A stretch of DNA of 64,000 nucleotides from NCBI GenBank assembly GCA_017484205.1, contig JAFUTO010000015.1, forward strand, positions 1,836 to 65,835, read 5' to 3'. The DNA is from Bacilli bacterium. GTDB lineage: Bacteria; Bacillota_I; Bacilli_A; RF39; UBA660. Made by a program: the position numbers and the translations under genes. The notes below the pieces were generated by a model. That model was not told where the DNA came from. It worked only from the letters and a program-made list of their open reading frames with translations, and did not search any database. Shown piece by piece: positions 4,571 through 48,467 of the stretch; position 1 is the stretch's first letter, and each line of letters starts with the position of its first letter.

Positions 4571-6789
4571 TGGATCATAAATATATAAAGGGGAGTTTTT
4601 CAAGAAGTTTTTTTGAAGGAAATAATGGATATTTAATAGGTATAATGAAACTTAAAGAAACAAATATAGAAGTATTTGAAGATTATTTAAATAAAACTAT
4701 TACATTTACTGGATATTTTGATAGTTTAAATACAAGTGATACATATATATTTTATGGTGAAGAAGTAGAACATCCAAGATTTGGTTTACAATTTGCAGTA
4801 TCATCTTATGAAAAAGTAAAACCAACTGATAAATTAGGTGTTATATCATTTTTATCAAGTGATTTATTTCCTGGTATAGGTGAAGCTATAGCTACATCTA
4901 TAGTTGATACAATTGGTGAAAATGCCCTTGATTTAATACTTGAAAATCCTAATATACTAAACACTGTACCTAAACTAAATGATAAGAAAAAGAATACTAT
5001 TATTACTAATTTGGAAAAATATGATGAATCTCATAAGATAATAGTATACTTATCTGAATTAGGTTTTAGCATGAAAGAAGCATTAAGTATATATAACTTA
5101 TATAAAGAATATACTATGGATAAAATAGGTGAAGATATATATGATATTATAGAAAATATAGATATACCATTTACTAAGGTAGATAGAATAGCTTTAAATA
5201 TGGGTTATAGTGAAGACGATACTAATAGAATAAAAGCATGTATTATATATAGTATGATAAATACTATATATACTAAAGGAGATACTTATTTAGATAAAAA
5301 AGATATATATAGTGATACGATGCGTTATCTAAATATAGATAATTATGTATATGATTTTGATACTTATTTAAGTGAATTAGAAAAATCAAATAAAATAGTT
5401 ATAGATAATGGTAAATATTATTTAAAAAGTATGTGGGATGATGAAGACTATATTATAGATAAAATTAAAAAGTTATCCAATATAGATAAATCTAATTATA
5501 AGTTAGATAAATACATAGATGAATTAGAAAAAGTATCAGGTATTATATATAATGATAATCAAAAGAAGGCAATTACTGATGCTTTAACAAATAATATATT
5601 ACTTATTACAGGAGGACCAGGTACAGGTAAAACAACTATTATTAAAGCTATTGTAGATTTATATAGTGAGATAAATAGTTATAAAACAAAAGATTTATTA
5701 TCTCGTGTAGCTTTACTCGCACCTACAGGAAGAGCGGCTAAAAGAATGAGTGAATCTTGTTTATTAGGTGCATCTACAATACATAGATTTTTAAAATGGA
5801 ATAAAGAATCTGAATCATTCGCGATTAATGAATTTAATAAAGATGATCATGATTTAATTATCGTAGATGAAGTTAGTATGATAGATATACCTTTATTCGC
5901 ATCATTGTTAAAAGGTCTTAAAGATAATATTAAATTAATATTAGTTGGAGATTATAATCAATTACCAAGTGTAGGACCTGGAGAATTATTAAAGGATTTA
6001 ATAGATAGTAATATGATAAATACCATATATTTGGATAAGCTATATAGACAAGATGAAAATTCATATATTGTATCTTTAGCTAGTGAAATAAAAGATAATA
6101 ATATAAGTGAAAACTTTCTAGAACCAAGAAGTGATTATATATTTTTAGAATGTAACAGCTTTATGATAAAAGAAAGTTTGAAAAATATTATTAATAGAAT
6201 GATTGAAAAAGATATTAATATGAAAAATGTACAAATAATGGCACCTATGTATAAAGGTGAGAATGGTATAGATAGTTTAAATAAAACTTTACAGAGTGTT
6301 ATTAATCCATCAAGCAATGATAAAAGGGAACTTGTAACAGGTGATATAACATATCGTGAGGGTGACAAAATATTACAACTTGTTAATATGCCTGATGATA
6401 ATGTATATAATGGTGATATTGGTATAATTACTAGAATAGAAAAAAATAAAGGCAAGGATGAAATATATATATCTTTTGATGGAAATATTGTTAAATATAC
6501 TCCTAAAGATTTTAGTAAAATAACACATGGGTATATTATAAGTATTCATAAATCACAAGGTAGTGAATTTGATACTATAATACTTCCTATGTCACATAGT
6601 TATAATAGAATGTTATATAGAAAACTTATATATACAGGTGTTACTAGGGCCAAAAGGAAATTGATATTTATAGGTGAAGCAAGTGCTTTCTTATATGGCG
6701 TTTCAAATAATAAGGAAGATCTTAGAAAAACTGATTTAAAAAATAAACTAGAAAATATGTATAAAATATATTTAGATAGTCCACAATAA
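4570..6789 (+). CDS. recD2: ATP-dependent RecD-like DNA helicase (RecD2)
   Basis: 739 aa. Walker A GGPGTGKTT, helicase motifs and a C-terminal SH3/UvrD-like region. GTG start overlaps the mtaB stop (TAGTG). Confidence 0.8.
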   Translation: MDHKYIKGSFSRSFFEGNNGYLIGIMKLKETNIEVFEDYLNKTITFTGYFDSLNTSDTYIFYGEEVEHPRFGLQFAVSSYEKVKPTDKLGVISFLSSDLFPGIGEAIATSIVDTIGENALDLILENPNILNTVPKLNDKKKNTIITNLEKYDESHKIIVYLSELGFSMKEALSIYNLYKEYTMDKIGEDIYDIIENIDIPFTKVDRIALNMGYSEDDTNRIKACIIYSMINTIYTKGDTYLDKKDIYSDTMRYLNIDNYVYDFDTYLSELEKSNKIVIDNGKYYLKSMWDDEDYIIDKIKKLSNIDKSNYKLDKYIDELEKVSGIIYNDNQKKAITDALTNNILLITGGPGTGKTTIIKAIVDLYSEINSYKTKDLLSRVALLAPTGRAAKRMSESCLLGASTIHRFLKWNKESESFAINEFNKDDHDLIIVDEVSMIDIPLFASLLKGLKDNIKLILVGDYNQLPSVGPGELLKDLIDSNMINTIYLDKLYRQDENSYIVSLASEIKDNNISENFLEPRSDYIFLECNSFMIKESLKNIINRMIEKDINMKNVQIMAPMYKGENGIDSLNKTLQSVINPSSNDKRELVTGDITYREGDKILQLVNMPDDNVYNGDIGIITRIEKNKGKDEIYISFDGNIVKYTPKDFSKITHGYIISIHKSQGSEFDTIILPMSHSYNRMLYRKLIYTGVTRAKRKLIFIGEASAFLYGVSNNKEDLRKTDLKNKLENMYKIYLDSPQ

Positions 6790-38220: not shown

Positions 38221-39639
38221 ATGCAAAATAAAGCAATTACAAGTAGAGATGTTGATTTTGGTAAATGGTATACTGATGTTGTAAGAGCAGCTAAACTAGC
38301 TAATTATTCAAATGTTAAAGGATGTATTACAATAGAACCTAATGGATATGCGATTTGGGAACGTATTCAAAGTGTTTTAGATGCTAAATTTAAAGAATTA
38401 GGTCACAAAAATGTATATATGCCAGTATTAATTCCAGAAAATTTAATGAAAAAAGAAGGTGAATTAATAAATGGTTTTGCACCTGAAGTAGCATGGGTTA
38501 CACAAGGTGGAGAAAAAGAATTAGAAGAACGTATGTGCATCAGACCTACAAGTGAAACATTATTTAGTGATTATTATAGCAGTGTTGTTAGATCATATAA
38601 GGATCTACCTATGAAATATAATCAATGGTGTAATGTAATGAGATGGGAAAAGGAAACTAGACCATTTTTAAGAAGTAGAGAATTTTTATGGCAAGAAGGT
38701 CATACAATTCATGCAACTGAAGCAGAAGCTATAGAGGAAGTAAATCAAATGCTAGAAGTATATAAATGGTTCTTTGAAGAATATTTGGCTATACCAGTTA
38801 TTACGGGTAAGAAAACAGATAAAGAGAAATTTGCTGGTGCTGAATATACTTTAACAGTAGAAGCATTAATGTATAATGGTGTATGTTTGCAATCAGGAAC
38901 TTCACATTATTTTGGTCAAAAATTTTCTAAAGCATATGATATAACATTCGCGAATAAAGATAATAAATTAGAACATGTATATCAAACAAGTTGGGGCGTT
39001 AGTACAAGAATGATTGGTGGATTAATTATGGTTCATAGTGATGATGCTGGATTAGTATTACCACCTAAAATAGCACCTACACAAGTTGTAATTATTCCAA
39101 TAGGTAATAGTTCAAAAGTTAATTATTTAGTAGAAAAATATTCAGAAGAATTAAAGGGTAAATATTCTATTACAATTGATGATTCTGATAAATCTCCAGG
39201 ATTTAAGTTTGCTGAAGCTGAGGTAAATGGTATACCAGTTCGTATTGAAATAGGGGAAAGAGATTTAGAAAATGATCATATTACATTAGTTAGAAGAGAT
39301 ACTAGAGAAAGAATAACAGTATCTAAAAATTGTGATATAGTAGCTGAAGTAACTAATTTACTAAATACTATCCAAAAAGATATGTATAATAGAGCTTTAG
39401 CAAGAAATAATGCATATACTTTTGAAGCACATAATTTAGATGAAGTTAAAAAAATTATGGATGTTCATCCAGGATTTATTAAAGGTATGTGGTGTGGTTC
39501 TAGAGAATGTGAAGATAAGATGAAAGAAATAAAAGGTCTTAAATCTAGATGTATTGTTAATGATGGTAAAATTGATGATAAATGTATTGTGTGTGGTCGT
39601 GATGCTAAAGACTTAGTATATTGGGGTATACAATATTGA
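38221..39639 (+). CDS. proS: prolyl-tRNA synthetase, archaeal/eukaryote-like type
   Basis: AAGGAGGA RBS. Class II aaRS motifs and a C-terminal zinc-binding Cys cluster. 472 aa, with no bacterial-type editing insertion. Confidence 0.85.
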   Translation: MQNKAITSRDVDFGKWYTDVVRAAKLANYSNVKGCITIEPNGYAIWERIQSVLDAKFKELGHKNVYMPVLIPENLMKKEGELINGFAPEVAWVTQGGEKELEERMCIRPTSETLFSDYYSSVVRSYKDLPMKYNQWCNVMRWEKETRPFLRSREFLWQEGHTIHATEAEAIEEVNQMLEVYKWFFEEYLAIPVITGKKTDKEKFAGAEYTLTVEALMYNGVCLQSGTSHYFGQKFSKAYDITFANKDNKLEHVYQTSWGVSTRMIGGLIMVHSDDAGLVLPPKIAPTQVVIIPIGNSSKVNYLVEKYSEELKGKYSITIDDSDKSPGFKFAEAEVNGIPVRIEIGERDLENDHITLVRRDTRERITVSKNCDIVAEVTNLLNTIQKDMYNRALARNNAYTFEAHNLDEVKKIMDVHPGFIKGMWCGSRECEDKMKEIKGLKSRCIVNDGKIDDKCIVCGRDAKDLVYWGIQY

Positions 39640-39748
39640 CGTTATAAAAGTGTTATGTTAAACTTGATTTGTGGTGAATAAATTCATCATGTACGTGGAA
39701 TAGCATAGAGAAAGGGCAACCTGAGGAATTTATAAGTCTATTCAATTA

Positions 39749-39776
39749 AGGGAAGTATTTGATACTTCCTTTTTTT
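39749..39776 (+). terminator. rho-independent terminator
   Basis: Stem ggaagtat/atacttcc followed by a T7 run. Confidence 0.6.
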
Positions 39777-39823
39777 AATAATAGTCTTTTTATTTTTATT
39801 AAAATATTATATAATATTGTTGT

Positions 39824-39863
39824 GTCCTCGTAGCTCAGTAGGATAGAGCGATCGCCTCCTAAG
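39824..39863 (+). pseudogene. 5' half of a split tRNA-Arg(CCU) gene, ending in the anticodon loop (attL side)
   Basis: gtcctcg acceptor 5' strand, D-arm gctc/gagc, anticodon stem atcgc, loop ctcctaa. No T-arm follows. Its partners are at 47551-47596. Confidence 0.7.
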
Positions 39864-39918
39864 TAAGTGGCTATGAGGAAAACATAAAAATAATTCCTTG
39901 CAAAGCAAGGAAATACCT

Positions 39919-39995
39919 GTCCTTGTAACTCAGTTGGATAGAGTATCCCTCTCCTAAAGGGAAAGTCGGAGGTTCAAATCCTCTCAAGGACACCA
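39919..39995 (+). tRNA. tRNA-Arg(CCU), intact, encoded inside the islet
   Basis: Complete cloverleaf: acceptor gtccttg/caaggac, D-arm actc/gagt, anticodon arm tccct-ctCCTaa-aggga, T-arm ggagg-ttcaaat-cctct, encoded CCA. Confidence 0.8.
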
Positions 39996-40263
39996 TTTTT
40001 GATTATAAAAGTCTTGAAATTAAGGGGTTTCAAGACTTTTTTACATATTTAAAAAAGTGTTATAAACTATCACAACTTGATACAAGGTACCTTCTAGTTT
40101 GGCACTTTTAATGGCACTCGTTGAATATTCAATAATTATCTATCAAAGTATTATAAATAAAGGGCAAAATACTTATGAGTGTTTTAAAAGTTGTTTGAAA
40201 TGGCACTTTTTTACTAAAAAAAGATAAAAATGTATTAAAATTATTAATAGTAAAGGTGGAAAA

Positions 40264-40494
40264 ATGAAAGATAAGCAATTTAAAGATTTAAGATTTAACA
40301 TAACTCAAGATATGAATAATATGATTATTGAAATAATAGTTATAAGACAATTATTAAAAGAAAATAAGGTTAGTAAGAAAGATAGAAAACTTGTTGAAAA
40401 AGAGTTGAAAGAATTAACCGATTTATTTGTATTAGAGTTTAGAAAAAATAATGTTGAAGAAAGAAAATTGTATAATGATTTAATGAATAAGTAA
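40264..40494 (+). CDS. hypothetical protein (76 aa)
   Basis: AAAGGTGGA RBS. Followed by a bidirectional terminator. Confidence 0.4.
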   Translation: MKDKQFKDLRFNITQDMNNMIIEIIVIRQLLKENKVSKKDRKLVEKELKELTDLFVLEFRKNNVEERKLYNDLMNK

Positions 40495-40501
40495 AAAAAA
40501 T

Positions 40502-40537
40502 AAGAGAGATAAGCAATTTAAAACTTATCTCTCTTTT
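40502..40537. terminator. bidirectional rho-independent terminator between convergent genes
   Basis: 12-bp stem aagagagataag/cttatctctctt, flanked by an A8 run and a T-run. Confidence 0.55.
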
Positions 40538-40889
40538 ACTTACAATGATTATGATTTTTGTATGTTTCTATTGGTCGCCCATATTGATTAGATACATCTA
40601 AACAAAAAGGACAACGATATATAAAACCATCTCTTATTAAAGTGTCTTTAATTTTACCATATACAAAAGTATCTTTAAACATATCAATATATTTTTTCTT
40701 TTCTTTAAAGTTCTCGTATTCTTGTTTATAGGTATCAATTCTTTTTTGCTTTTCTCTTTTTTCATCAAGTTTTTTTAGGTAGTCATCAATTTTCTTTTCA
40801 AGTGTTATTTGTAAGTATTCATCATCAAGACCTAGTGTAATTGTTCTATCAGTTAAACCTAACATATTTAATATATCTTTATCTTTCAT
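40536..40889 (-). CDS. hypothetical protein with C-terminal Cys/His zinc-finger-like motif
   Basis: CPFC...H.HC at the C-terminus. Overlaps the upstream HTH gene. Confidence 0.45.
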   Translation of the reverse strand: MKDKDILNMLGLTDRTITLGLDDEYLQITLEKKIDDYLKKLDEKREKQKRIDTYKQEYENFKEKKKYIDMFKDTFVYGKIKDTLIRDGFIYRCPFCLDVSNQYGRPIETYKNHNHCK

Positions 40890-41061
40890 TTTTAACCCCT
40901 AAATTATCTAAACACTTTTTTAAATCTTCTTGACTAACAATATATTGTCTTCCTATAAAATGTGCTTTTAAAGTATGTTCTTTAATCATTTTTCTTAAAT
41001 ATGGTATTGGTGTCTTTAATAGACAACTTATCTCTTTTAATGTGTAATATTGATTACTCAT
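40879..41061 (-). CDS. excisionase-family helix-turn-helix DNA-binding protein
   Basis: 60 aa. YTLKEISCLLKTPIPYLRKMIKE resembles the MerR/Xis-type HTH. A palindromic operator lies just upstream. Confidence 0.5.
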   Translation of the reverse strand: MSNQYYTLKEISCLLKTPIPYLRKMIKEHTLKAHFIGRQYIVSQEDLKKCLDNLGVKNER

Positions 41062-41073
41062 CTTTTTATCATC

Positions 41074-41096
41074 TCCTTACTATTTAGTAGTAAGAT
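41074..41096. promoter_or_regulatory. palindromic putative operator (TTACTATTTAGTAGTAA) at the promoter of the HTH gene
   Basis: Perfect 6-bp arms ttacta/tagtaa separated by a 5-bp spacer (ttact-a-TTTAG-tagtaa), 13 bp upstream of the start codon. Confidence 0.4.
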
Positions 41097-41426
41097 GATA
41101 CTTAAAATCAAAAAGTTATTAATAGTATATATATAGTATATAAATAGTGAAATACCCTATAAAATCAAAGATTAATTCAAAATTAAACACCTCAAAAAAT
41201 ACCAAATTCCGCTATCTAAAATCGTTGAAAATATCTTTATAGTGCAATTATATTACTAGGGGCTAAAAAGTGTCTTAAATCGGCTTAAAATGGTGGTGTT
41301 TTAATTTAAGGGTACGGGTGGGGTTAAGTTAGAAAAGGTATTATAATCTCAAAATGGGGTATTTGCCCTAAATTAAATCTAGTTAAATAAAAAAAGCATA
41401 TAGCAATTACTATATACTTATTTACA

Positions 41427-41828
41427 TTACTTTAATATTTCGTTTTCGTATAATCTATCAATATTTTTTTCATACCATATTTTTGACTCATTATGAGAAC
41501 TTGCTGAAAAAATCCCACCAACTAATATAATAGCAATTCCTATAAACATAATAGTTACATTAAATCCTAGTATACAACTAAAAAATAGAAAAAGCATACC
41601 AAAGATAAGAATAAATATACCAAAAAATCTACTTGGGACATTCCACCATTCTTTGTTTAATTTTCTATATGCTACTATCTTATATCTTTCTTCTTGTGTT
41701 AATTCTTCCCATTTTTTCTTATTCATTGTTTTAATTTTTTCTTGAAAAATTGGGTTGCCACAATGAATACAAGTTGTTGCTTTATCACTTATTTCTTTTC
41801 CACATTCACTACATTTAATTAAAGCCAT
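41427..41828 (-). CDS. zinc-ribbon domain membrane protein
   Basis: N-terminal CSECGK...CIHCGNP zinc ribbon, then two TM helices. Confidence 0.5.
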   Translation of the reverse strand: MALIKCSECGKEISDKATTCIHCGNPIFQEKIKTMNKKKWEELTQEERYKIVAYRKLNKEWWNVPSRFFGIFILIFGMLFLFFSCILGFNVTIMFIGIAIILVGGIFSASSHNESKIWYEKNIDRLYENEILK

Positions 41829-41829
41829 T

Positions 41830-42162
41830 TTATTTACTCCTTTTATTTTTATTTATTTCATATAGATTTTTAAGTGTATATGCTTTCCACTCTAAAAATG
41901 GTGTGCTTAATATAGCACCAATTACAAATAAAGCACTAGATATTAAGCAAGTAATAAAAACTCCTGTATTTTCACTTAAATTGCCTAGACCAACAAAGAA
42001 TAATATAATTGCAACAATAAAAGATATTATTCTAATAACCTTTGAAAGTTTTAAAAAGTAATTAATATTTTTCTCTGTACCATTTAATATATTATCGTAT
42101 GTTTCGTTAAACAAGTTGCTTGTATCGTTTTTATCTAATTCATCAAAAAAATTATCTTTCAT
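41830..42162 (-). CDS. small membrane protein (2 TM), hypothetical
   Basis: Translationally coupled to the flanking genes. Confidence 0.4.
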   Translation of the reverse strand: MKDNFFDELDKNDTSNLFNETYDNILNGTEKNINYFLKLSKVIRIISFIVAIILFFVGLGNLSENTGVFITCLISSALFVIGAILSTPFLEWKAYTLKNLYEINKNKRSK

Positions 42163-42829
42163 TTTTTAAACTCCTTTCATTTATACTTTTTCCATACAAG
42201 TATAAGAATAGAACAAAAGAACAAGATTTAATTATTCCGTTAATTGTGCCTAAAAAATTAAATGTAATTAGTACATAAGGGTTATAAGTTATGTATTCAT
42301 TATATTTTAGATATGAATATGAAGATATAACAAAAGGTATCAAACTTATTAAGGTTAAAATGATTAACAATATCATTAAGAACTTATAAGGCATTTTCTT
42401 TTTGTTTAATATTCCATAAACCATTATTATTTCTAAAACCATAAATAAAGCATTTGATATTAAATTAAACCACATTTGAAACTTGCCTAAACTACTTACA
42501 CTTATTGAAATAGAATGTATTTGATTGATGTAATTTACTTGCCCGACAATATAAATTATTAATGATACTATTAACCAAATAAATAAGATAAGATTTAATG
42601 TTCTCATATTCTTTTCTTTTTTCTTTAAAATTATTAGTAAATAAATAATTATATATAAATTAACATTTGTGAAAAAACCGACAATAGTTGTAAGTGTTCT
42701 AGTTGTTTTAATTGAATTAGGCATATCACTAACAAAAACAATATTAGAAATAGTTGAAATAGCAAAACCAATAATAATTGTTGCTATTGTAATTATTGCT
42801 AGTGTTTTAGGTTTTAAAATCTTCTTCAT
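42152..42829 (-). CDS. polytopic membrane protein (6 TM), hypothetical
   Basis: 225 aa. First gene of the three-gene minus-strand membrane-protein operon, divergent from the XRE gene. Confidence 0.45.
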   Translation of the reverse strand: MKKILKPKTLAIITIATIIIGFAISTISNIVFVSDMPNSIKTTRTLTTIVGFFTNVNLYIIIYLLIILKKKEKNMRTLNLILFIWLIVSLIIYIVGQVNYINQIHSISISVSSLGKFQMWFNLISNALFMVLEIIMVYGILNKKKMPYKFLMILLIILTLISLIPFVISSYSYLKYNEYITYNPYVLITFNFLGTINGIIKSCSFVLFLYLYGKSINERSLKNER

Positions 42830-42946
42830 TTAATCACTCCTTTCTATTCTATTATAGCATAACTTACTCGAATAGAGTAAGTATATTTAGGGCTATTAGT
42901 GAGAAAATTATATATAGAGTTAGTATATAGAGTTAGGTGGTGAATT

Positions 42947-43207
42947 ATGTTTGATAGAAATAATGAGAATTATGTTTATGAGTTAGTATCTAAAAATATT
43001 AAAAAACAAAGACAATTAAAAGGGCTAACACAAGAACAATTAGCAGATAAAATGAATTATTCAACACAATTTATATCTAATATTGAAAGTAAAAATCATC
43101 AAACATTTTCACTTGGTACAATATGGAGATTAGCACTTGTCCTTGATATAAGTATTAAAGATTTATTTGATGAAGAAGAACAAAAAAATAAGAGTGATGA
43201 AGACTAA
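42947..43207 (+). CDS. XRE-family helix-turn-helix transcriptional regulator
   Basis: LKGLTQEQLADKMNYSTQFISNIE is a classic Cro/C1-type HTH. RBS present. Confidence 0.7.
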   Translation: MFDRNNENYVYELVSKNIKKQRQLKGLTQEQLADKMNYSTQFISNIESKNHQTFSLGTIWRLALVLDISIKDLFDEEEQKNKSDED

Positions 43208-43527
43208 AAAATCTTTATCACTCTTTTAATATATATAAACACCTTATAGGGTGGTATTTTTTTATTTATATTTATCTTTACAAAAGGTATTTAATATATT
43301 TTATAATAATTATATCTTATGGAAGATAATTTATATTATTATATATTTAACTTAATATATATTATTTTAGTAAATATATTTATATATATTATTTTTATTA
43401 ATTTACTTAATAGTATCTAACTTAATATAAAAATATAAAAATTAATTACTCTATATATAATTATATGTATAAATATAATTAATCAAATAAAAAGGAATAG
43501 ACTTAATATAAGTCCACTCCATAGAGA
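43208..43527. repeat. extremely AT-rich (~90% AT) intergenic region with four copies of an ACTTAATA(T/G) motif
   Basis: Motif copies near 43349, 43405, 43421 and 43501. Confidence 0.4.
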
Positions 43528-43980
43528 TTATATATTATTTAATATATTATAAAACTTATCTAACATATCTTTCATTTCATTAGGTATAGTATTTAATTTA
43601 TTTAATGATTTCTTTATATCTAGTATATTTCCTATTAGTACCCTTAATGTTATTTCTTCATAAGCTGTTTTAATATCATATTTATTTTTATAAGCATTAA
43701 ATAAATTAGAGTTAGTAGATATTAAGTCTATTGTTCCATTAGTAATAAGTAATAGTAATAATAAACTTTTATATTTTTCTATTTCATCATTAGAATTAAT
43801 ATTAAAATTAAAATCTAAATCAAATAATTTATATGTATTTTCTAAATAAGGTATTATATATAACTTAACATTTTTATCAGTATTCTCAATATTAATACTA
43901 TTTGTTAAATAGTCTTGTTCTAAATTATGTTGTTTAATAAAATCATCACATAATAAATCTAATATATTTTGTTTTCTCAT
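43528..43980 (-). CDS. hypothetical protein (150 aa)
   Basis: Last gene of the minus-strand cargo operon. Lys/Asn/Ile-rich. No known motifs. Confidence 0.45.
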   Translation of the reverse strand: MRKQNILDLLCDDFIKQHNLEQDYLTNSINIENTDKNVKLYIIPYLENTYKLFDLDFNFNINSNDEIEKYKSLLLLLLITNGTIDLISTNSNLFNAYKNKYDIKTAYEEITLRVLIGNILDIKKSLNKLNTIPNEMKDMLDKFYNILNNI

Positions 43981-43981
43981 A

Positions 43982-44896
43982 TTAACTATTCCTTTCGTAT
44001 AAGTCTTTAAATTGTTCTATAAGTTCTTTAATATTTGAAAATGCTAAATCAATATTATCATTATCAATTAAATTACTAATATCTTTTAATTTATTAAATA
44101 CATTTATATAAGTTATATCTTTTACAAAGGAAATATCTTGATTTAAAAACTCTTTTAAGAAATAATTAAATAAGTTTACAAGGCATTTATCATTGTATAT
44201 GTAATAATCTACCATTGAATTATTTAAGTCTTTAATTTTATTTAAAATATCAAATATGAAATATCTTTGCTCTGTATCTTCATTAAGATTAATACCTGTT
44301 CTTTTTTCATAAGATATTATAAAATCATTGTTTAATTTTTTTTGCTTATCACTATCAAATAGAGTTGATGATTTTATATCTAAATCATTTATTATTTTTA
44401 AATTAACTTTTTTGGGTAGTTTATCATTTGGCTTTTTGATATATGGCATATCTTTACTATCAATTAATTTATCAAAATTAAGACTATCAAGTATATTCAT
44501 AAAATACTCGGTATCTTTTTCAAGATTTTTAAGATTATATTTAGTCTTTTTAGTTGTATATAATTCTTTCATCTCATTTAATTCATCAAGTGTATTTTCT
44601 AAACTATCATATATCAAGATACACTCACTATCATAACACTTTTTAATCTTGTTTTTATATTTGTTTAAATAAGCATTTATTAAGTGCATTATATTATCTA
44701 CTTTTTGATTAATAGGTATATAGTTTAAAGAAAATAAGATATTATTTAAACTAATATAAGTGTTATATGTTTCAAATATCAATTCATATTGTAAGGGGTA
44801 GTCTTTAATTTTTATATTAAAAGCACTTTCAAACTTTTTAATATAAATAGATTTATTAAAATATTTCTTATCAAGTTTATTATGATATTTTCCCAT
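43982..44896 (-). CDS. hypothetical protein (304 aa)
   Basis: Translationally coupled to the 150-aa gene. No recognisable domain. Confidence 0.5.
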   Translation of the reverse strand: MGKYHNKLDKKYFNKSIYIKKFESAFNIKIKDYPLQYELIFETYNTYISLNNILFSLNYIPINQKVDNIMHLINAYLNKYKNKIKKCYDSECILIYDSLENTLDELNEMKELYTTKKTKYNLKNLEKDTEYFMNILDSLNFDKLIDSKDMPYIKKPNDKLPKKVNLKIINDLDIKSSTLFDSDKQKKLNNDFIISYEKRTGINLNEDTEQRYFIFDILNKIKDLNNSMVDYYIYNDKCLVNLFNYFLKEFLNQDISFVKDITYINVFNKLKDISNLIDNDNIDLAFSNIKELIEQFKDLYERNS

Positions 44897-44940
44897 AGTA
44901 CCAACTCCATATATAAATTATAACACAAAAAAAGAATAGT

Positions 44941-45150
44941 TTATGCTATTCCAAGTCTTAATAATTCTTTTTTTATTAATTCATCATAAGTTGTTTTAAC
45001 ATTATTTATCATTAATTCTAAATAATCAGTAAATACATTGTTAAATATCTCATTAAAAGTATTCATATCATTTTCATAAGGTGTATTTTTTAAACCATTT
45101 TCTATTATTTCACAAACATAATTTTCATCATACATTTTATAATCTTTCAT
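44941..45150 (-). CDS. hypothetical protein (69 aa)
   Basis: Small ORF in the cargo operon. Confidence 0.4.
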   Translation of the reverse strand: MKDYKMYDENYVCEIIENGLKNTPYENDMNTFNEIFNNVFTDYLELMINNVKTTYDELIKKELLRLGIA

Positions 45151-45166
45151 ATTATCAATTCCTTTC

Positions 45167-45355
45167 TTAATTTATTCTATATAATGTAAAATTGCTAAAA
45201 TCGTTATTTTTAATGGCTCTTTTTAACAATTCTCCTTTATAATCAATTCTTTCATAAGCAATTAAAGATTTATCATTTTCAATAATGAACTTTAATTCCT
45301 CATCAGTCATATTTTTAATACCTTTCTTTTTTAATTCTTCAATTCTATTTTTCAT
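45167..45355 (-). CDS. hypothetical protein (62 aa)
   Basis: Small ORF in the cargo operon. Confidence 0.4.
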   Translation of the reverse strand: MKNRIEELKKKGIKNMTDEELKFIIENDKSLIAYERIDYKGELLKRAIKNNDFSNFTLYRIN

Positions 45356-45469
45356 AATATCAAATCCTTTCTTTCTATATATTTTTAATTACCTTTACAA
45401 GCAAGATTAAACTTTATAAGTCTAAAATTGCTTGTATAGGGTTTTAAATCGTTTTAACTAACTTTTAGA

Positions 45470-45706
45470 TTAGTCTAATTGAGTTATAATATCGTTTAGT
45501 TTTATAAAATCATCATATTGTTTTTGAATAATCTTATAAAAACTATTTAATCTATTATCAAGATTATTTTTTGAATTATTGTTTTTAAACTCAAGATTAA
45601 GATATTTATAAAACTTATTTAATTCTTTAGTGCTTAACTCTTTACCAGCATACTTATTAACCATAAGTTTTATCATTTCTTGTCTTATGTCTAAAATATC
45701 TATCAT
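45470..45706 (-). CDS. hypothetical protein (78 aa)
   Basis: First gene of the cargo operon. AGGAG RBS. Confidence 0.4.
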   Translation of the reverse strand: MIDILDIRQEMIKLMVNKYAGKELSTKELNKFYKYLNLEFKNNNSKNNLDNRLNSFYKIIQKQYDDFIKLNDIITQLD

Positions 45707-45984
45707 TTTAACAACTCCTTTCGTGATTTTACAAAACTCGTCGACTTGCTTTGTGATTTCATCATACTAGGTTTTTGAGTAAAAAAAAATAGTTTTTCAT
45801 CAACTTTTTTGGGTTATATTTTACTTATTTTTGTCCGAAATAATTAATTTTTTTGCTCTTTTTTTCTTTATTTTCAATACCCCATATTTTAAAAATGGGG
45901 CTTTTTTGGTTGCTCGTTTTGGTACCTCTTTTTAGGTATAGTGTAGTTGTTCGAACAAGAAATATTTTGAAAGGAGCAACTTTT

Positions 45985-46182
45985 ATGACAAAGAAAATAT
46001 GTGATATTCAAGAATTATCAAGTTATTTAAAAATATCAGTATCAGAGATTAGAAAATTAGTAAGAAGTAAAAGAATACCACATTTTAGAATTGGTAATAG
46101 ATTAAAATTTGATTTAGTAAAAATTAATTCTTGGGTTGAAGATTTAGAGGCACAAGAGGGAAAAAATCTATTATTTTTCTAG
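45985..46182 (+). CDS. excisionase/AlpA-like HTH DNA-binding protein
   Basis: AAAGGAG RBS before the ATG at 45985. LSSYLKISVSEIRKLVRSKRIPHFRIGNRLKF matches the excisionase-family HTH. The track's N-terminal extension from 45853 is probably not coding. Confidence 0.6.
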   Translation: MTKKICDIQELSSYLKISVSEIRKLVRSKRIPHFRIGNRLKFDLVKINSWVEDLEAQEGKNLLFF

Positions 46183-46270
46183 GAAAAAAGGGCAAAATAT
46201 GGTATAATTATATTAGATAATTATTGAAGTATTTTGCTCGTAAGATTATTGAAAGGAGTTAAAAATCTTA

Positions 46271-47400
46271 TGAGTATAACAAGATTATCAAATAATAAAT
46301 ATAAAATAATTATTGAACTAGGTTATGACATTTTAGGTAATAGAAAAAGATTAACAAAGACTGTCAATGGCACTAAAAATGAGGCAATTAAAATTGAAGC
46401 CGATTTAAAAAGCAAATATTATCATATAGGAAAAGCAAACAATATAAGTGATTTAACATTTGAAGAATATAGCCAAATATTCCTATCAAAATATTGTGAT
46501 AAAATCAGTTTAGTTACAAAAGATGGCTACGAAAAATCACTTAAAAGAATATTGCCGATAATAGGAAAGATTAAACTTAATAAGATAACTCCACTTGTAT
46601 TAGATAATATGTATCAAAAATTAAAGATAGGAAAAAATAGTCAAGTGTTAGGTTATCACTCTATGTATGGTTATTATAAACTTATTAATGTAATGTTTAA
46701 TCAAGCCATTAAATGGGAAGTATTAGATAAAAACCCTAATTTAAAAGCCAATAAACCTAAAAGAGAAAAAGCCGAAAGAAAGTATTATGATTTAGAACAA
46801 GTACAAAAGTTATTATCTTGTTTAGAGTATGAAAATATTAAATATAGAACTCTTATAACTCTTGCATTAGATAGTGGAGCAAGAAGAAGTGAAATATGTG
46901 CTTTAAGGTGGAGTGATATTGATTTTGATACTAACTTAATGAGAATTGATAAATCTTTAAAGGTTATTAGAGGTGTTGTTGATGAGGCAACAACTAAAAC
47001 TGAAAGTTCTAAAAGAGAAATAATGTTAAGTAATTCAACCATTGACTTATTAAAGGAGTATAAAGAGTGGCAAGATAATTATATTAAATGGGTTGGCAAG
47101 AAATGGAAAGGTACTAATAGAGTATTTATATCTCAATATGGAGATTATATGCACCCTAGCACTTGCGACCATATAATGAGAAAAATAGTTAAAAAATATG
47201 AGTTAGCCCCTATATGCTTTCACGAATTAAGACATACTTCGGCTAGTATCTTAATACATAAAGGTATAAACCCTAAAGCAGTAAGTCAAAGATTAGGTCA
47301 TGCCGATACAAGTATCACAATGGAAATATATTCACATACTTTTGATATAACCAAAAAAGAAAGTGCTATGGCTTTTGATGAAGTATTAAAAAAAGCATAA
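46271..47400 (+). CDS. tyrosine-type site-specific integrase
   Basis: AAAGGAG RBS. N-terminal arm-binding-like region. Catalytic R...HELRHT...Y motifs (GHADTSITMEIYSH). Confidence 0.85.
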
Positions 47401-47550
47401 ATTGGCACTAAAAAAATTGAAATGGCACCAATTTTCGGCACTCGGTTAAAAAATAAAGTTCAATAATTTAAGAAAAATGATAGAAAAACCCTTTTAAAAA
47501 AAGGAGTTTCAAGATATAATAATGGTGTTCTTGTGAGGGGAAGCAAGTCC

Positions 47551-47596
47551 CCTCCTAAGCGATAGGTCGTTGGTTCGATTCCAATCGAGGACGCCA
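47551..47596 (+). pseudogene. 3' half of the split tRNA-Arg(CCU) (attR side)
   Basis: Anticodon-stem 3' strand gcgat, T-arm gttgg-ttcgatt-ccaat, acceptor cgaggac, then gCCA. These pair perfectly with the 5' half at 39824-39863. Confidence 0.7.
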
Positions 47597-47615: not shown

Positions 47616-48467
47616 ATGAAAATAATGATAACAGGTGTTACCGGTCAATTAGGCTATGATATTTATAGAGAATTAATTAGTAGAGGTTATGATAAAAATG
47701 ATATATATGCACCTGCACATAGTGATTTAGATATAGTTAATAAGGAAGATGTTTTAACTAAAGTAAAAGCATTTAATCCAGATATAATTTTTCATTGCGC
47801 GGCCTATACAGCTGTAGACAAAGCAGAGGAAGAAAAAGATTTATGTAACGCGATTAATGCTGTAGGTACAGAAAATATTGTTGATGCTGCTTCCATTACT
47901 AATGCTAAAGTAGTTTATATAAGTACTGACTATATATTTGATGGAAAAAAAGAAGGACTTTATGAAACATATGATGAATCTAATCCAGTTAATGTATATG
48001 GTTTAAGCAAGCTAAATGGTGAAAATATAGTTAAAGGATATGATAAACACTTCATTGTTAGAATATCATGGGTATTTGGTGAAAATGGTAAAAATTTTAT
48101 AAAGACTATGTTAAAGCTAAGTGAAACACATGATGAATTAAATGTTGTAAGTGATCAAGAGGGAAGTCCTACATATACTGCTGATTTAGCGCCTTTACTT
48201 GTTAATATGGCAAATACTTCATTATATGGAACTTATCATGCAACTAATAGAGGATTTATTACTTGGTATGAACTTGCTAAAATGACATTTAAAATAGCAG
48301 GTAAAGAAGTAAAAGTAAATCCAATATTAACTAAAGATTATAAGACTTTAGCTAAAAGACCACTTAATTCTAAATTAAGTAAAACATCATTAGTAGAAGC
48401 AGGATTTGAATTATTACCTGAAGTAGAAGACGCAGTTAAAAGATATGTTAAAATAATAAATAAGTGA
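47616..48467 (+). CDS. rfbD: dTDP-4-dehydrorhamnose reductase
   Basis: GVTGQLG Rossmann fold. RmlD-family motifs. 283 aa. Confidence 0.85.
   Translation: MKIMITGVTGQLGYDIYRELISRGYDKNDIYAPAHSDLDIVNKEDVLTKVKAFNPDIIFHCAAYTAVDKAEEEKDLCNAINAVGTENIVDAASITNAKVVYISTDYIFDGKKEGLYETYDESNPVNVYGLSKLNGENIVKGYDKHFIVRISWVFGENGKNFIKTMLKLSETHDELNVVSDQEGSPTYTADLAPLLVNMANTSLYGTYHATNRGFITWYELAKMTFKIAGKEVKVNPILTKDYKTLAKRPLNSKLSKTSLVEAGFELLPEVEDAVKRYVKIINK

Follow-up and report, generated by a model that had tools for sequence, protein, structure and literature searches.

We analyzed a 64-kb stretch of DNA (hereafter the window, within which all coordinates are positions) from an uncultured member of the Bacilli with a G+C content of 20-30%, in which the host gene for tRNA-Arg(CCU) is found as two pieces on either side of an islet that measures 7,696 bp from core to core. 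From the sequences of this locus and its relatives, we consider it highly probable that the islet integrated into the anticodon loop of this gene and halved it, and that a tRNA-Arg(CCU) carried by the islet itself would be read from the host promoter and would replace the lost decoder of AGG codons. Loci and proteins compared with the window are labeled with L-numbers and P-numbers, respectively.

A host tRNA gene divided in its anticodon loop

The two pieces of the host gene lie at 39824-39863 (piece 1, GTCCTCGTAGCTCAGTAGGATAGAGCGATCGCCTCCTAAG) and at 47551-47596 (piece 2, CCTCCTAAGCGATAGGTCGTTGGTTCGATTCCAATCGAGGACGCCA). Both contain the 9-mer CCTCCTAAG, which occurs exactly twice in the window (39855-39863 and 47551-47559) against a chance expectation of 0.12, and merging the pieces through this overlap gave a sequence that ARAGORN calls as a 77-nt tRNA-Arg(CCT). 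A preliminary description of this DNA had proposed that the pieces rejoin into one tRNA, and this was borne out: an intact tRNA in an Erysipelotrichaceae metagenome-assembled genome (MAG; locus L013) is identical to the rejoined 77-mer at 77/77 positions, and two other genomes match it at 76/77, among the matches listed. The 77/77 match came from a scan of genome contigs with a 28-nt anticodon-arm pattern, which returned at least 120 loci. The same description took the 9-bp repeat as the core of the attachment (att) sites. Both copies are indeed at the expected coordinates, but the core shared by the whole family of elements described below is only the 7-nt anticodon loop CTCCTAA; it extends to 8-9 nt in individual cases, and the 9-mer is not universal.

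The host tRNA is rebuilt at neither end of the islet, as had been claimed from the outset. ARAGORN called no tRNA at the left (attL) or right (attR) junction of the window, and the Rfam tRNA model gave 26.9 bits over 47527-47593 at attR, which is below its gathering score of 29. Judging by these scores, it is very likely that neither junction is functional as a tRNA. From the two junctions we reconstructed the empty host site attB as GAGCGATCGCCTCCTAAGCGATAGGTCG and the site of the circular form, attP, as GCAAGTCCCCTCCTAAGTAAGTGGCTATG.

An uninterrupted version of this locus occurs in a related species. The closest relatives of the prolyl-tRNA synthetase (ProRS) encoded on the left flank, found in three independent assemblies (L147-149), are only 80% identical to the window ProRS. 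In these loci, an uninterrupted tRNA-Arg(CCT) is located directly downstream of proS; it matches the rejoined gene at 75/77 positions, and the TATAAT-containing upstream sequence is kept, with the box 'attatataatatt' also present upstream of the intact tRNA in L147. When the window was aligned with L147, proS (81.7% DNA identity) and an HD-domain gene further downstream (70%) were aligned, and the islet was unaligned. L147-149 are the empty-site orthologue of this locus. The anticipated empty junction between proS and rmlD was therefore recovered in part, in that the uninterrupted proS-tRNA-Arg(CCU) arrangement exists in the nearest related species, but no such arrangement was found within the species itself, and in L147-149 the intact tRNA is followed by a gene other than rmlD. 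The 28-nt scan, whose pattern was too permissive and matched many phyla, showed no proS or rmlD neighbor among the matches listed, and exact-protein look-ups of RmlD and ProRS yielded either this contig again or short ones ending within the tRNA pieces, which are uninformative on the empty site. As a separate observation, the intact tRNA-Arg(CCU) of L147 (7465-7541) has a C5-A68 mismatch in its acceptor stem, which is paired at 7/7 positions in the rejoined gene of the window.

The element-borne tRNA and the family that carries it

An intact tRNA-Arg(CCU) is located 55 nt inside the left junction. It is the only tRNA that either ARAGORN or Rfam (67.5 bits) called in the window, and it matches the host tRNA at 55/77 positions, so that its earlier description as an intact but divergent gene holds. 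The sequence of this inner tRNA is the same in L131, L139 and L140, from which the window copy differs by one position, and its D stem (ACUC/GAGU) is specific to the element. Across the family, all of the stem cells are paired (126/126) and 9 of the 21 pairs have changed on both sides; none of 500 shuffles performed equally well, and the pairing collapses in slid registers. Such pairing is to be expected of a working tRNA under purifying selection.

The integrase (Int) of the islet has 970 relatives at E<=1e-20, and the best 120 of these 970 are at least 65% identical to it. We examined the genomic contexts of nine integrase relatives and of two loci from the DNA-pattern scan. The same layout was found in seven further unrelated chromosomal contexts (L131-133, L139, L140, L141, L145/146, L150 and L152), always in the order of host 5' half, CTCCTAA, spacer, complete tRNA-Arg(CCT), body, excisionase (Xis) gene, integrase gene, CTCCTAA and host 3' half. 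The integrases of L131-133, L141, L145/146, L150 and L152 are 84, 82, 69, 68 and 66% identical to that of the window (L139 and L140 are not included in these values), and the spacer measures 55-57 nt, or 78 nt in L152. In all eight contexts, the outer halves rejoin into a tRNA-Arg(CCT) and an inner tRNA-Arg(CCT) is present, and ARAGORN called no tRNA at any of the 16 junctions. The outer halves are specific to each host, with pairwise identities among the eight host tRNAs of 50-71 out of 77. In L140 the anticodon stem also differs, and attL and attR share only the 7-nt loop. All seven sampled relatives with a visible left end and a tRNA-Arg(CCU) target have the split layout. The proposal that the element destroys its target tRNA and supplies a substitute is thus supported by seven other host contexts, by the host-specific halves and by the inner tRNA that belongs to the element.

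The elements also appear to have moved recently. The ends of the window element are 98% identical to those of L139, L140 and L157, with a mosaic middle and unrelated flanks, and an identical integrase (P0079) adjoins two different host 3' halves in L150 and L151. With regard to the contigs themselves, Logan contig L157 ends exactly at the end of CCTCCTAAG (6758-6766), which fits a branch point in the assembly graph and is no proof of one, and at the start of L002 and the end of L004, short-read (Logan) contigs likewise break off exactly at the att core or tRNA pieces or within them. Such contig ends are consistent with several contexts meeting in the assembly graph, or with the presence of an excised form in those samples.

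A sister clade of elements (L135-137 and L155, with integrases P0024 and P0040 that are 75-76% identical) targets tRNA-Arg(UCU) in the classical manner: an intact tRNA is present at attL, a 46-bp copy of its 3' half is present at attR, and there is no extra tRNA. These elements share with the split type the Xis-Int, HTH_3 and HTH_17 backbone, the position of Int beside attR and GGCAC repeats on both sides. The repeats, which we take as arm-type sites, are found at +163, +175 and +187 from the core in the classical L135, which is about 82 nt closer than the P' repeats found at +245 and +257 in all split-type members. Because of this displacement, the split type resembles a classical attP in which the 3' half has been swapped for the spacer plus a whole tRNA, and the inner tRNA indeed sits between the core and the P' arm sites, where the classical relatives hold the 3' half of their target. 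In a neighbor-joining tree of nine integrases, which is too small to fix the direction of change, the classical clade was nested among split-type members. Within this clade, the same UCU-type element is accompanied by a Germane-domain host gene on the opposite side and strand in L136 (8511-9443) as compared with L135 (1847-2779), which could be due to an inversion, a different host arrangement or a misassembly.

Proposed mechanism and alternative explanations

We propose that a lambda-type tyrosine integrase with arm-type sites recombined the islet with the host tRNA-Arg(CCU) gene, strand exchange taking place inside the 7-nt loop CTCCTAA. Given that attP and attB share only this loop, attL retains the 5' half of the host gene and attR its 3' half. 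After integration, the host tRNA promoter would drive the inner tRNA, on a transcript that begins with the dead 5' half, continues through the spacer and the tRNA and stops at a terminator-like hairpin and T run. RNase P and 3' trimming would then process this transcript, and the inner tRNA would substitute for the lost AGG decoder. Reading from the host promoter is suggested because the empty-site relative shares the TATAAT box, no promoter is conserved in the spacer, the spacer hairpin resembles a terminator on the minus strand only, and a hairpin with a T run follows the tRNA. The promoter scanner found no promoter-like site within the spacer, none is conserved across the family, and a promoter for the inner tRNA inside the spacer was dropped as there was no conserved candidate. 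The spacer hairpin is found 5-10 nt upstream of the inner tRNA in all members (L131, L141, L145, L150 and L152 among them), its position being kept and its sequence varying, and only its minus strand has the T run. The hairpin 3' of the tRNA was not called by the terminator scanner because its stem has too few G-C pairs. The start of the spacer, GTAAGTGGCTATGAG, also occurs in L131, L139 and L140 and travels with the element; it is probably a core-type Int site.

Carrying a whole tRNA may also free the element from the need to match the acceptor and anticodon stems of each host. Hosts with widely differing tRNA-Arg(CCU) genes have nearly identical element ends, which would be explained in this way. 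In 52 of the 56 combinations obtained by in-silico half-swaps among the eight host tRNAs, one or more pairs of the acceptor or anticodon stem were broken, and therefore a classical attP with a 3' half would often yield a defective gene in a new host. As the exchange occurs inside identical loops, precise excision by Xis and Int should restore the host gene exactly, so that the element would not strictly qualify as an addiction module. If the host is dependent at all, it is the loss of the inner tRNA that would matter and not that of the whole element.

Several results weigh against this interpretation. AGG accounts for only 15% of Arg codons (4.3 per 1000), and since it is a minority codon that might also be read by the UCU tRNA, the replacement may not be essential. 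The host tRNA promoter has a perfect -10 box but a weak -35 box, and was not called by the promoter scanner for the latter reason. The attR hybrid keeps the tRNA-like Rfam score of 26.9 bits given above. The only empty site found is that of a relative with an 80% identical ProRS, and none was found in the same species. Finally, the attP or circular junction (pattern CTCCTAAGTAAGTGGCTATGAG) was absent from IMG/VR, and JGI metagenomes gave only two attL junctions. Searches of IMG/VR also returned no match for the inner tRNA and no close relatives of the islet.

The codon usage is equally the basis of a different explanation, in which the insertion is real but the inner tRNA is mere cargo: tRNA-Arg(CCU) would be dispensable in low-G+C hosts because tRNA-Arg(UCU) reads AGG, and the carried gene would serve, for example, in resistance to tRNA-targeting defenses or in boosting AGG decoding. 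Apart from the low share of AGG codons, it is in line with this that the E. coli gene argW (CCU) is non-essential. Some relatives carry restriction-modification genes, namely a DNA methylase with R.HinP1I in L131 (6375-8097), a type I HsdRMS set in L143 (1-4789) and an N6_N4 methylase with a ResIII helicase in L152 (1765-5954), so that these elements operate in a defense context. The family seems to shuttle defense genes, and the cargo of the window itself has no recognizable function. Counter-defense has also been raised as a possible selective force for phage-borne tRNAs of this kind (PMC10865867). However, the carried tRNA has exactly the anticodon of the destroyed gene in all eight contexts in which the left end was seen, it always lies behind the host promoter at the same place and in the same orientation, compensatory changes have preserved its stems, and the sister clade that rebuilds its target has no extra tRNA. 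We therefore regard the explanation by cargo as unlikely.

The right end of the element requires separate consideration. A degenerate mimic of a tRNA 5' half starts about 6 nt after an outward promoter-like site; its GUUCUUG forms 7/7 pairs with the 3' acceptor strand of the host, two of which are G-U, and its GUCCC forms 4/5 pairs with the host anticodon-stem strand. The motif '(T)ATAAT n3-4 GGTGT' is present at the right end of most members, weaker in L141 (ATAAAA) and absent in L131. One might suppose that the attR junction, consisting of the mimic and the host 3' half, yields a working tRNA-like RNA with a poor D arm from the outward promoter, as the Rfam score over 47527-47593, the pairing of the acceptor and anticodon stems and a predicted transcription start near the first base of the mimic would allow. 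We find this very improbable, because the score stays below the gathering threshold, ARAGORN does not call the hybrid, a D arm with G18 G19 is missing, and a C-C mismatch interrupts the anticodon stem. Moreover, the acceptor complementarity reaches 7/7 in only two lineages and is at the chance level (5/7) in L131, L141, L150 and L152. A co-adaptation of the mimic to the acceptor stem of each host, with 7/7 in those two lineages only and the others at chance, was accordingly rejected as a general rule. We read the right end as a relic, and attP as a pseudo-tRNA gene upstream of the working copy; the relic may retain an outward promoter role.

Returning to the replacement of the host tRNA by that of the element, a more far-reaching version of it is conceivable, although we hold it only tentatively and consider it doubtful. 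Here attP would be a promoter-bearing pseudo-tRNA gene 56 nt upstream of the working tRNA, the promoters would be swapped on integration, and the whole would act as a universal docking module. In the circular form, transcription from the element promoter (47493-47520) would pass the decayed 5' half and the core before reaching the tRNA. In the integrated form, the host promoter would drive the element tRNA, and the element promoter would drive the orphan 3' half and the downstream host genes. If this is true, the cassette would make the integrase independent of the host tRNA outside the 7-nt loop, and it would constitute a broad-host-range "universal tRNA-Arg(CCU) docking module" that spreads defense cargo among gut Bacilli.

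Slighter still is the probability that a classical integration was followed by rearrangement or left tandem remnants, so that the inner tRNA would be a rebuilt hybrid and the outer 5' half old debris. It is true that tRNA-Arg genes are hot spots of integration, with many integrases adjoining tRNA-Arg(CCU) in unrelated genomes among the matches listed, and that the inner anticodon loop lies about 150 nt from the arm sites, near the classical core-to-arm distance of 163 nt. However, the inner tRNA has a 5' half that belongs to the element and does not change between hosts with different 5' halves of their own. Moreover, every outer 5' half is a perfect match for its 3' partner, the sequence GTAAGTGGCTATGAG at the beginning of the spacer is kept along with the element, and each locus has a single integrase and a single pair of cores. 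That the split is an artifact of assembly or of a chimeric MAG contig has a negligible probability, since, although the window is a metagenome contig and short-read contigs break inside the tRNA pieces, independent assemblies in ENA, Logan, NCBI and JGI, which represent many samples and hosts, contain the same junction types.

Gene content and comparison with known systems

The features of the islet and its flanks are collected in Table 1. The Xis and Int genes occupy the right end and are oriented toward attR, and the early assignment of an integrase with an Xis-like gene is confirmed by Pfam and TIGR01764. GGCAC repeats flank the reconstructed attP on both sides.

Table 1. Positions of the features of the tRNA-Arg(CCU) locus and the islet within the window (ORF, open reading frame)
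Feature	Position	Strand	Basis or remark
proS (prolyl-tRNA synthetase), left host flank	38221..39639	+	Pfam tRNA-synt_2b, HGTP_anticodon, ProRS-C_1; 472-aa product
Intrinsic terminator of proS	39748..39772	+	11-pair stem, then T run
TATAAT box, putative promoter of host tRNA-Arg(CCU)	39810..39815	+	8 nt before tRNA 5' end; read from sequence
Host tRNA-Arg(CCU) 5' half (acceptor 5' strand, D arm, anticodon-stem 5' strand)	39824..39855	+	
attL core CTCCTAA, anticodon loop	39856..39862	+	sole segment common to attL and attR in all family members
Element-side spacer, 55 nt	39864..39918	+	starts GTAAGTGGCTATGAG; hairpin inside at 39894-39912
Intact element tRNA-Arg(CCU)	39919..39995	+	ARAGORN; Rfam 67.5 bits
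Hairpin and T run 3' of inner tRNA, likely terminator, A+T-rich stem	40007..40042	+	read by eye; position kept in relatives
P' arm-type repeats GGCAC	40101..40117	+	copies at 40101 and 40113; third at 40202
Cargo/backbone region, several small ORFs, mostly leftward	40264..45706	.	Pfam
HTH_17 gene	40879-41061	-	Pfam
Zinc-ribbon membrane protein gene	41427-41828	-	Pfam
HTH_3 repressor-like gene	42947-43207	+	Pfam
Genes of conserved 150-aa and 304-aa proteins	43528-44896	-	
Excisionase-family (Xis) gene	45985..46182	+	Pfam HTH_17; TIGR01764 'excise' 33.8 bits vs cut-off 28.8
Tyrosine integrase, 376 aa	46270..47400	+	Pfam Phage_integrase (5.8e-33), Phage_int_SAM_3
P arm-type repeats GGCAC x3	47404..47441	+	47404, 47424, 47437
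Outward promoter-like site TTTAAA-16-TATAAT	47493..47520	+	10/12 matches; reads into attR and rmlD
Degenerate tRNA 5'-half mimic, element side	47527..47551	+	GUUCUUG, 10 nt replacing D arm, then GUCCC
attR core CTCCTAA	47552..47558	+	
Host tRNA-Arg(CCU) 3' half (anticodon-stem 3' strand, variable loop, T arm, acceptor 3' strand, GCCA)	47559..47596	+	
rmlD, right host flank	47616..48467	+	Pfam RmlD_sub_bind 5.7e-90; starts 20 nt after attR

The islet genes were compared with PHROG, PADLOC and NCBIfam, and no phage structural, conjugation or known defense family was found (Xis matches TIGR01764). PHROG gave no match except for the zinc-ribbon protein of unknown function, Pfam detected no capsid or terminase domain, and a sequence search of the cargo proteins against the PDB gave nothing useful. 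The 304-aa protein (43982-44896, minus strand) is conserved in the element family and has more than 200 relatives and no Pfam domains; its AlphaFold model is all-helical (predicted local distance difference test, pLDDT, 84; predicted template-modeling score, pTM, 0.49) and showed no significant fold match in a Foldseek search against the PDB. Phage satellites resembling phage-inducible chromosomal islands (PICIs) combine a module of int, repressor, xis and primase-replicase genes with genes for hijacking the packaging of a helper. The window has Int, Xis and the HTH_3 repressor-like gene, and no replicase or packaging gene was recognizable by Pfam, PHROG or NCBIfam. Genes resembling DnaB_C or HTH_36 are present in some relatives of the islet. 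Between the repressor-like gene and the leftward operon, the segment at 43208-43527 has a G+C content of about 17% with imperfect direct and inverted repeats, and it may be an origin or operator region.

The sublocation classes of Williams 2002 reportedly include tRNA integrases that use the anticodon loop. As in these classical anticodon-loop systems, the crossover proposed here falls in a 7-nt loop flanked by a symmetric stem. However, the attP of a classical system includes the 3' half of the target, and attL regains an intact gene, whereas here the attL core is followed by GTAAGTGGCTATGAG and the rest of the spacer, with no tRNA 3' half. In the trans-spliced split tRNAs of the Nanoarchaeum type, the halves are transcribed separately and joined via complementary extensions, and the arrangement is stable and non-mobile. 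This type was rejected for the present locus, given that a mobile element whose ends are 98% identical elsewhere lies between the halves and the gene is intact in a relative. No complementary extensions were seen at the junctions of the window.

The closest parallel is tRNA-dependent lysogeny, which was defined by Guerrero-Bustamante and Hatfull (mBio 2024, PMC10865867). In that system, the core is 8-17 bp long, integration leaves the host without a rebuilt tRNA, and the phage must provide one of the same isotype; genetic demonstration was given for Fionnbharth (K4) and Cluster L, and the mechanism was inferred for Gaia and the Gordonia CQ2/DL phages (PMC10865867). Close phage relatives with cores of 43-52 bp rebuild the tRNA and lack the extra tRNA, and Lj965 was cited as a possible case outside Actinobacteria (PMC10865867). 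Since the concept had been published, the novelty implied by the preliminary description was overestimated. The islet shares with these phages (PMC10865867) a tyrosine integrase, arm-type sites and an attB in a host tRNA gene, although recombination here is deduced from the junctions, and it likewise has a short core (7-9 bp), no rebuilt tRNA and an element tRNA with the same anticodon. The contrast between short-core and long-core phages (PMC10865867) corresponds to that between the split CCU and classical UCU clades.

There are also clear differences. The actinobacteriophages are full temperate phages (PMC10865867), whereas the elements described here are islets of 7-10 kb in uncultured gut Bacilli without recognizable phage genes; the islet works like tRNA-dependent lysogeny but is not a prophage. 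The targets are tRNA-Lys, tRNA-Ile2 and tRNA-Leu in actinobacteriophages (PMC10865867) and tRNA-Arg(CCU) here, and this integrase is at most 36% identical to any integrase in the phage collection. In K4 and Cluster L, the phage tRNA lies away from attP, with a demonstrated upstream promoter in Fionnbharth (PMC10865867), whereas the element tRNA here is part of the attP region, 55 nt away from the core and in the same orientation as the host tRNA promoter. The essentiality of the phage tRNA was shown by experiment in actinobacteriophages, in that attP-int constructs of Fionnbharth yield integrants only when they include it (PMC10865867), whereas its counterpart here may or may not be essential. 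According to the accounts of Lactobacillus johnsonii prophage Lj965 (Ventura et al. 2003/2004, via PMC10865867 and PMC3714127), it too is a Bacillota element whose tRNA is reportedly not rebuilt and which encodes a cognate tRNA; unlike the islet, it is described as a prophage of about 40 kb with four tRNA genes. Phage-related sequences of Sinorhizobium meliloti, in the account of PMC11476347, similarly inactivate a tRNA and bring one with the same anticodon that is closer to the tRNAs of other taxa, but they concern Alphaproteobacteria and different integrases and, in that account, were studied by descriptive genomics.

What is new here is the set of hosts (uncultured gut Bacilli), the non-phage islet and the location of the tRNA between the core and the arm sites. 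The principle itself is not new; what the islet offers is a clear and compact example of it, widespread and found outside both phages and Actinobacteria. Programs that find islands by seeking a displaced 3' tRNA fragment beside an intact hybrid gene would misplace the boundary of such an element and could mistake the element tRNA for a host gene. The cassette of core, spacer, tRNA and arm sites, together with the integrase and Xis, makes these elements candidate integration vectors for gut Bacillota that are hard to manipulate. The frequency of tRNA-dependent integration outside actinobacteriophages had been left open (PMC10865867), and our analysis suggests that small non-phage islets of uncultured gut Bacilli, which form a large and recently mobile family, employ this strategy.

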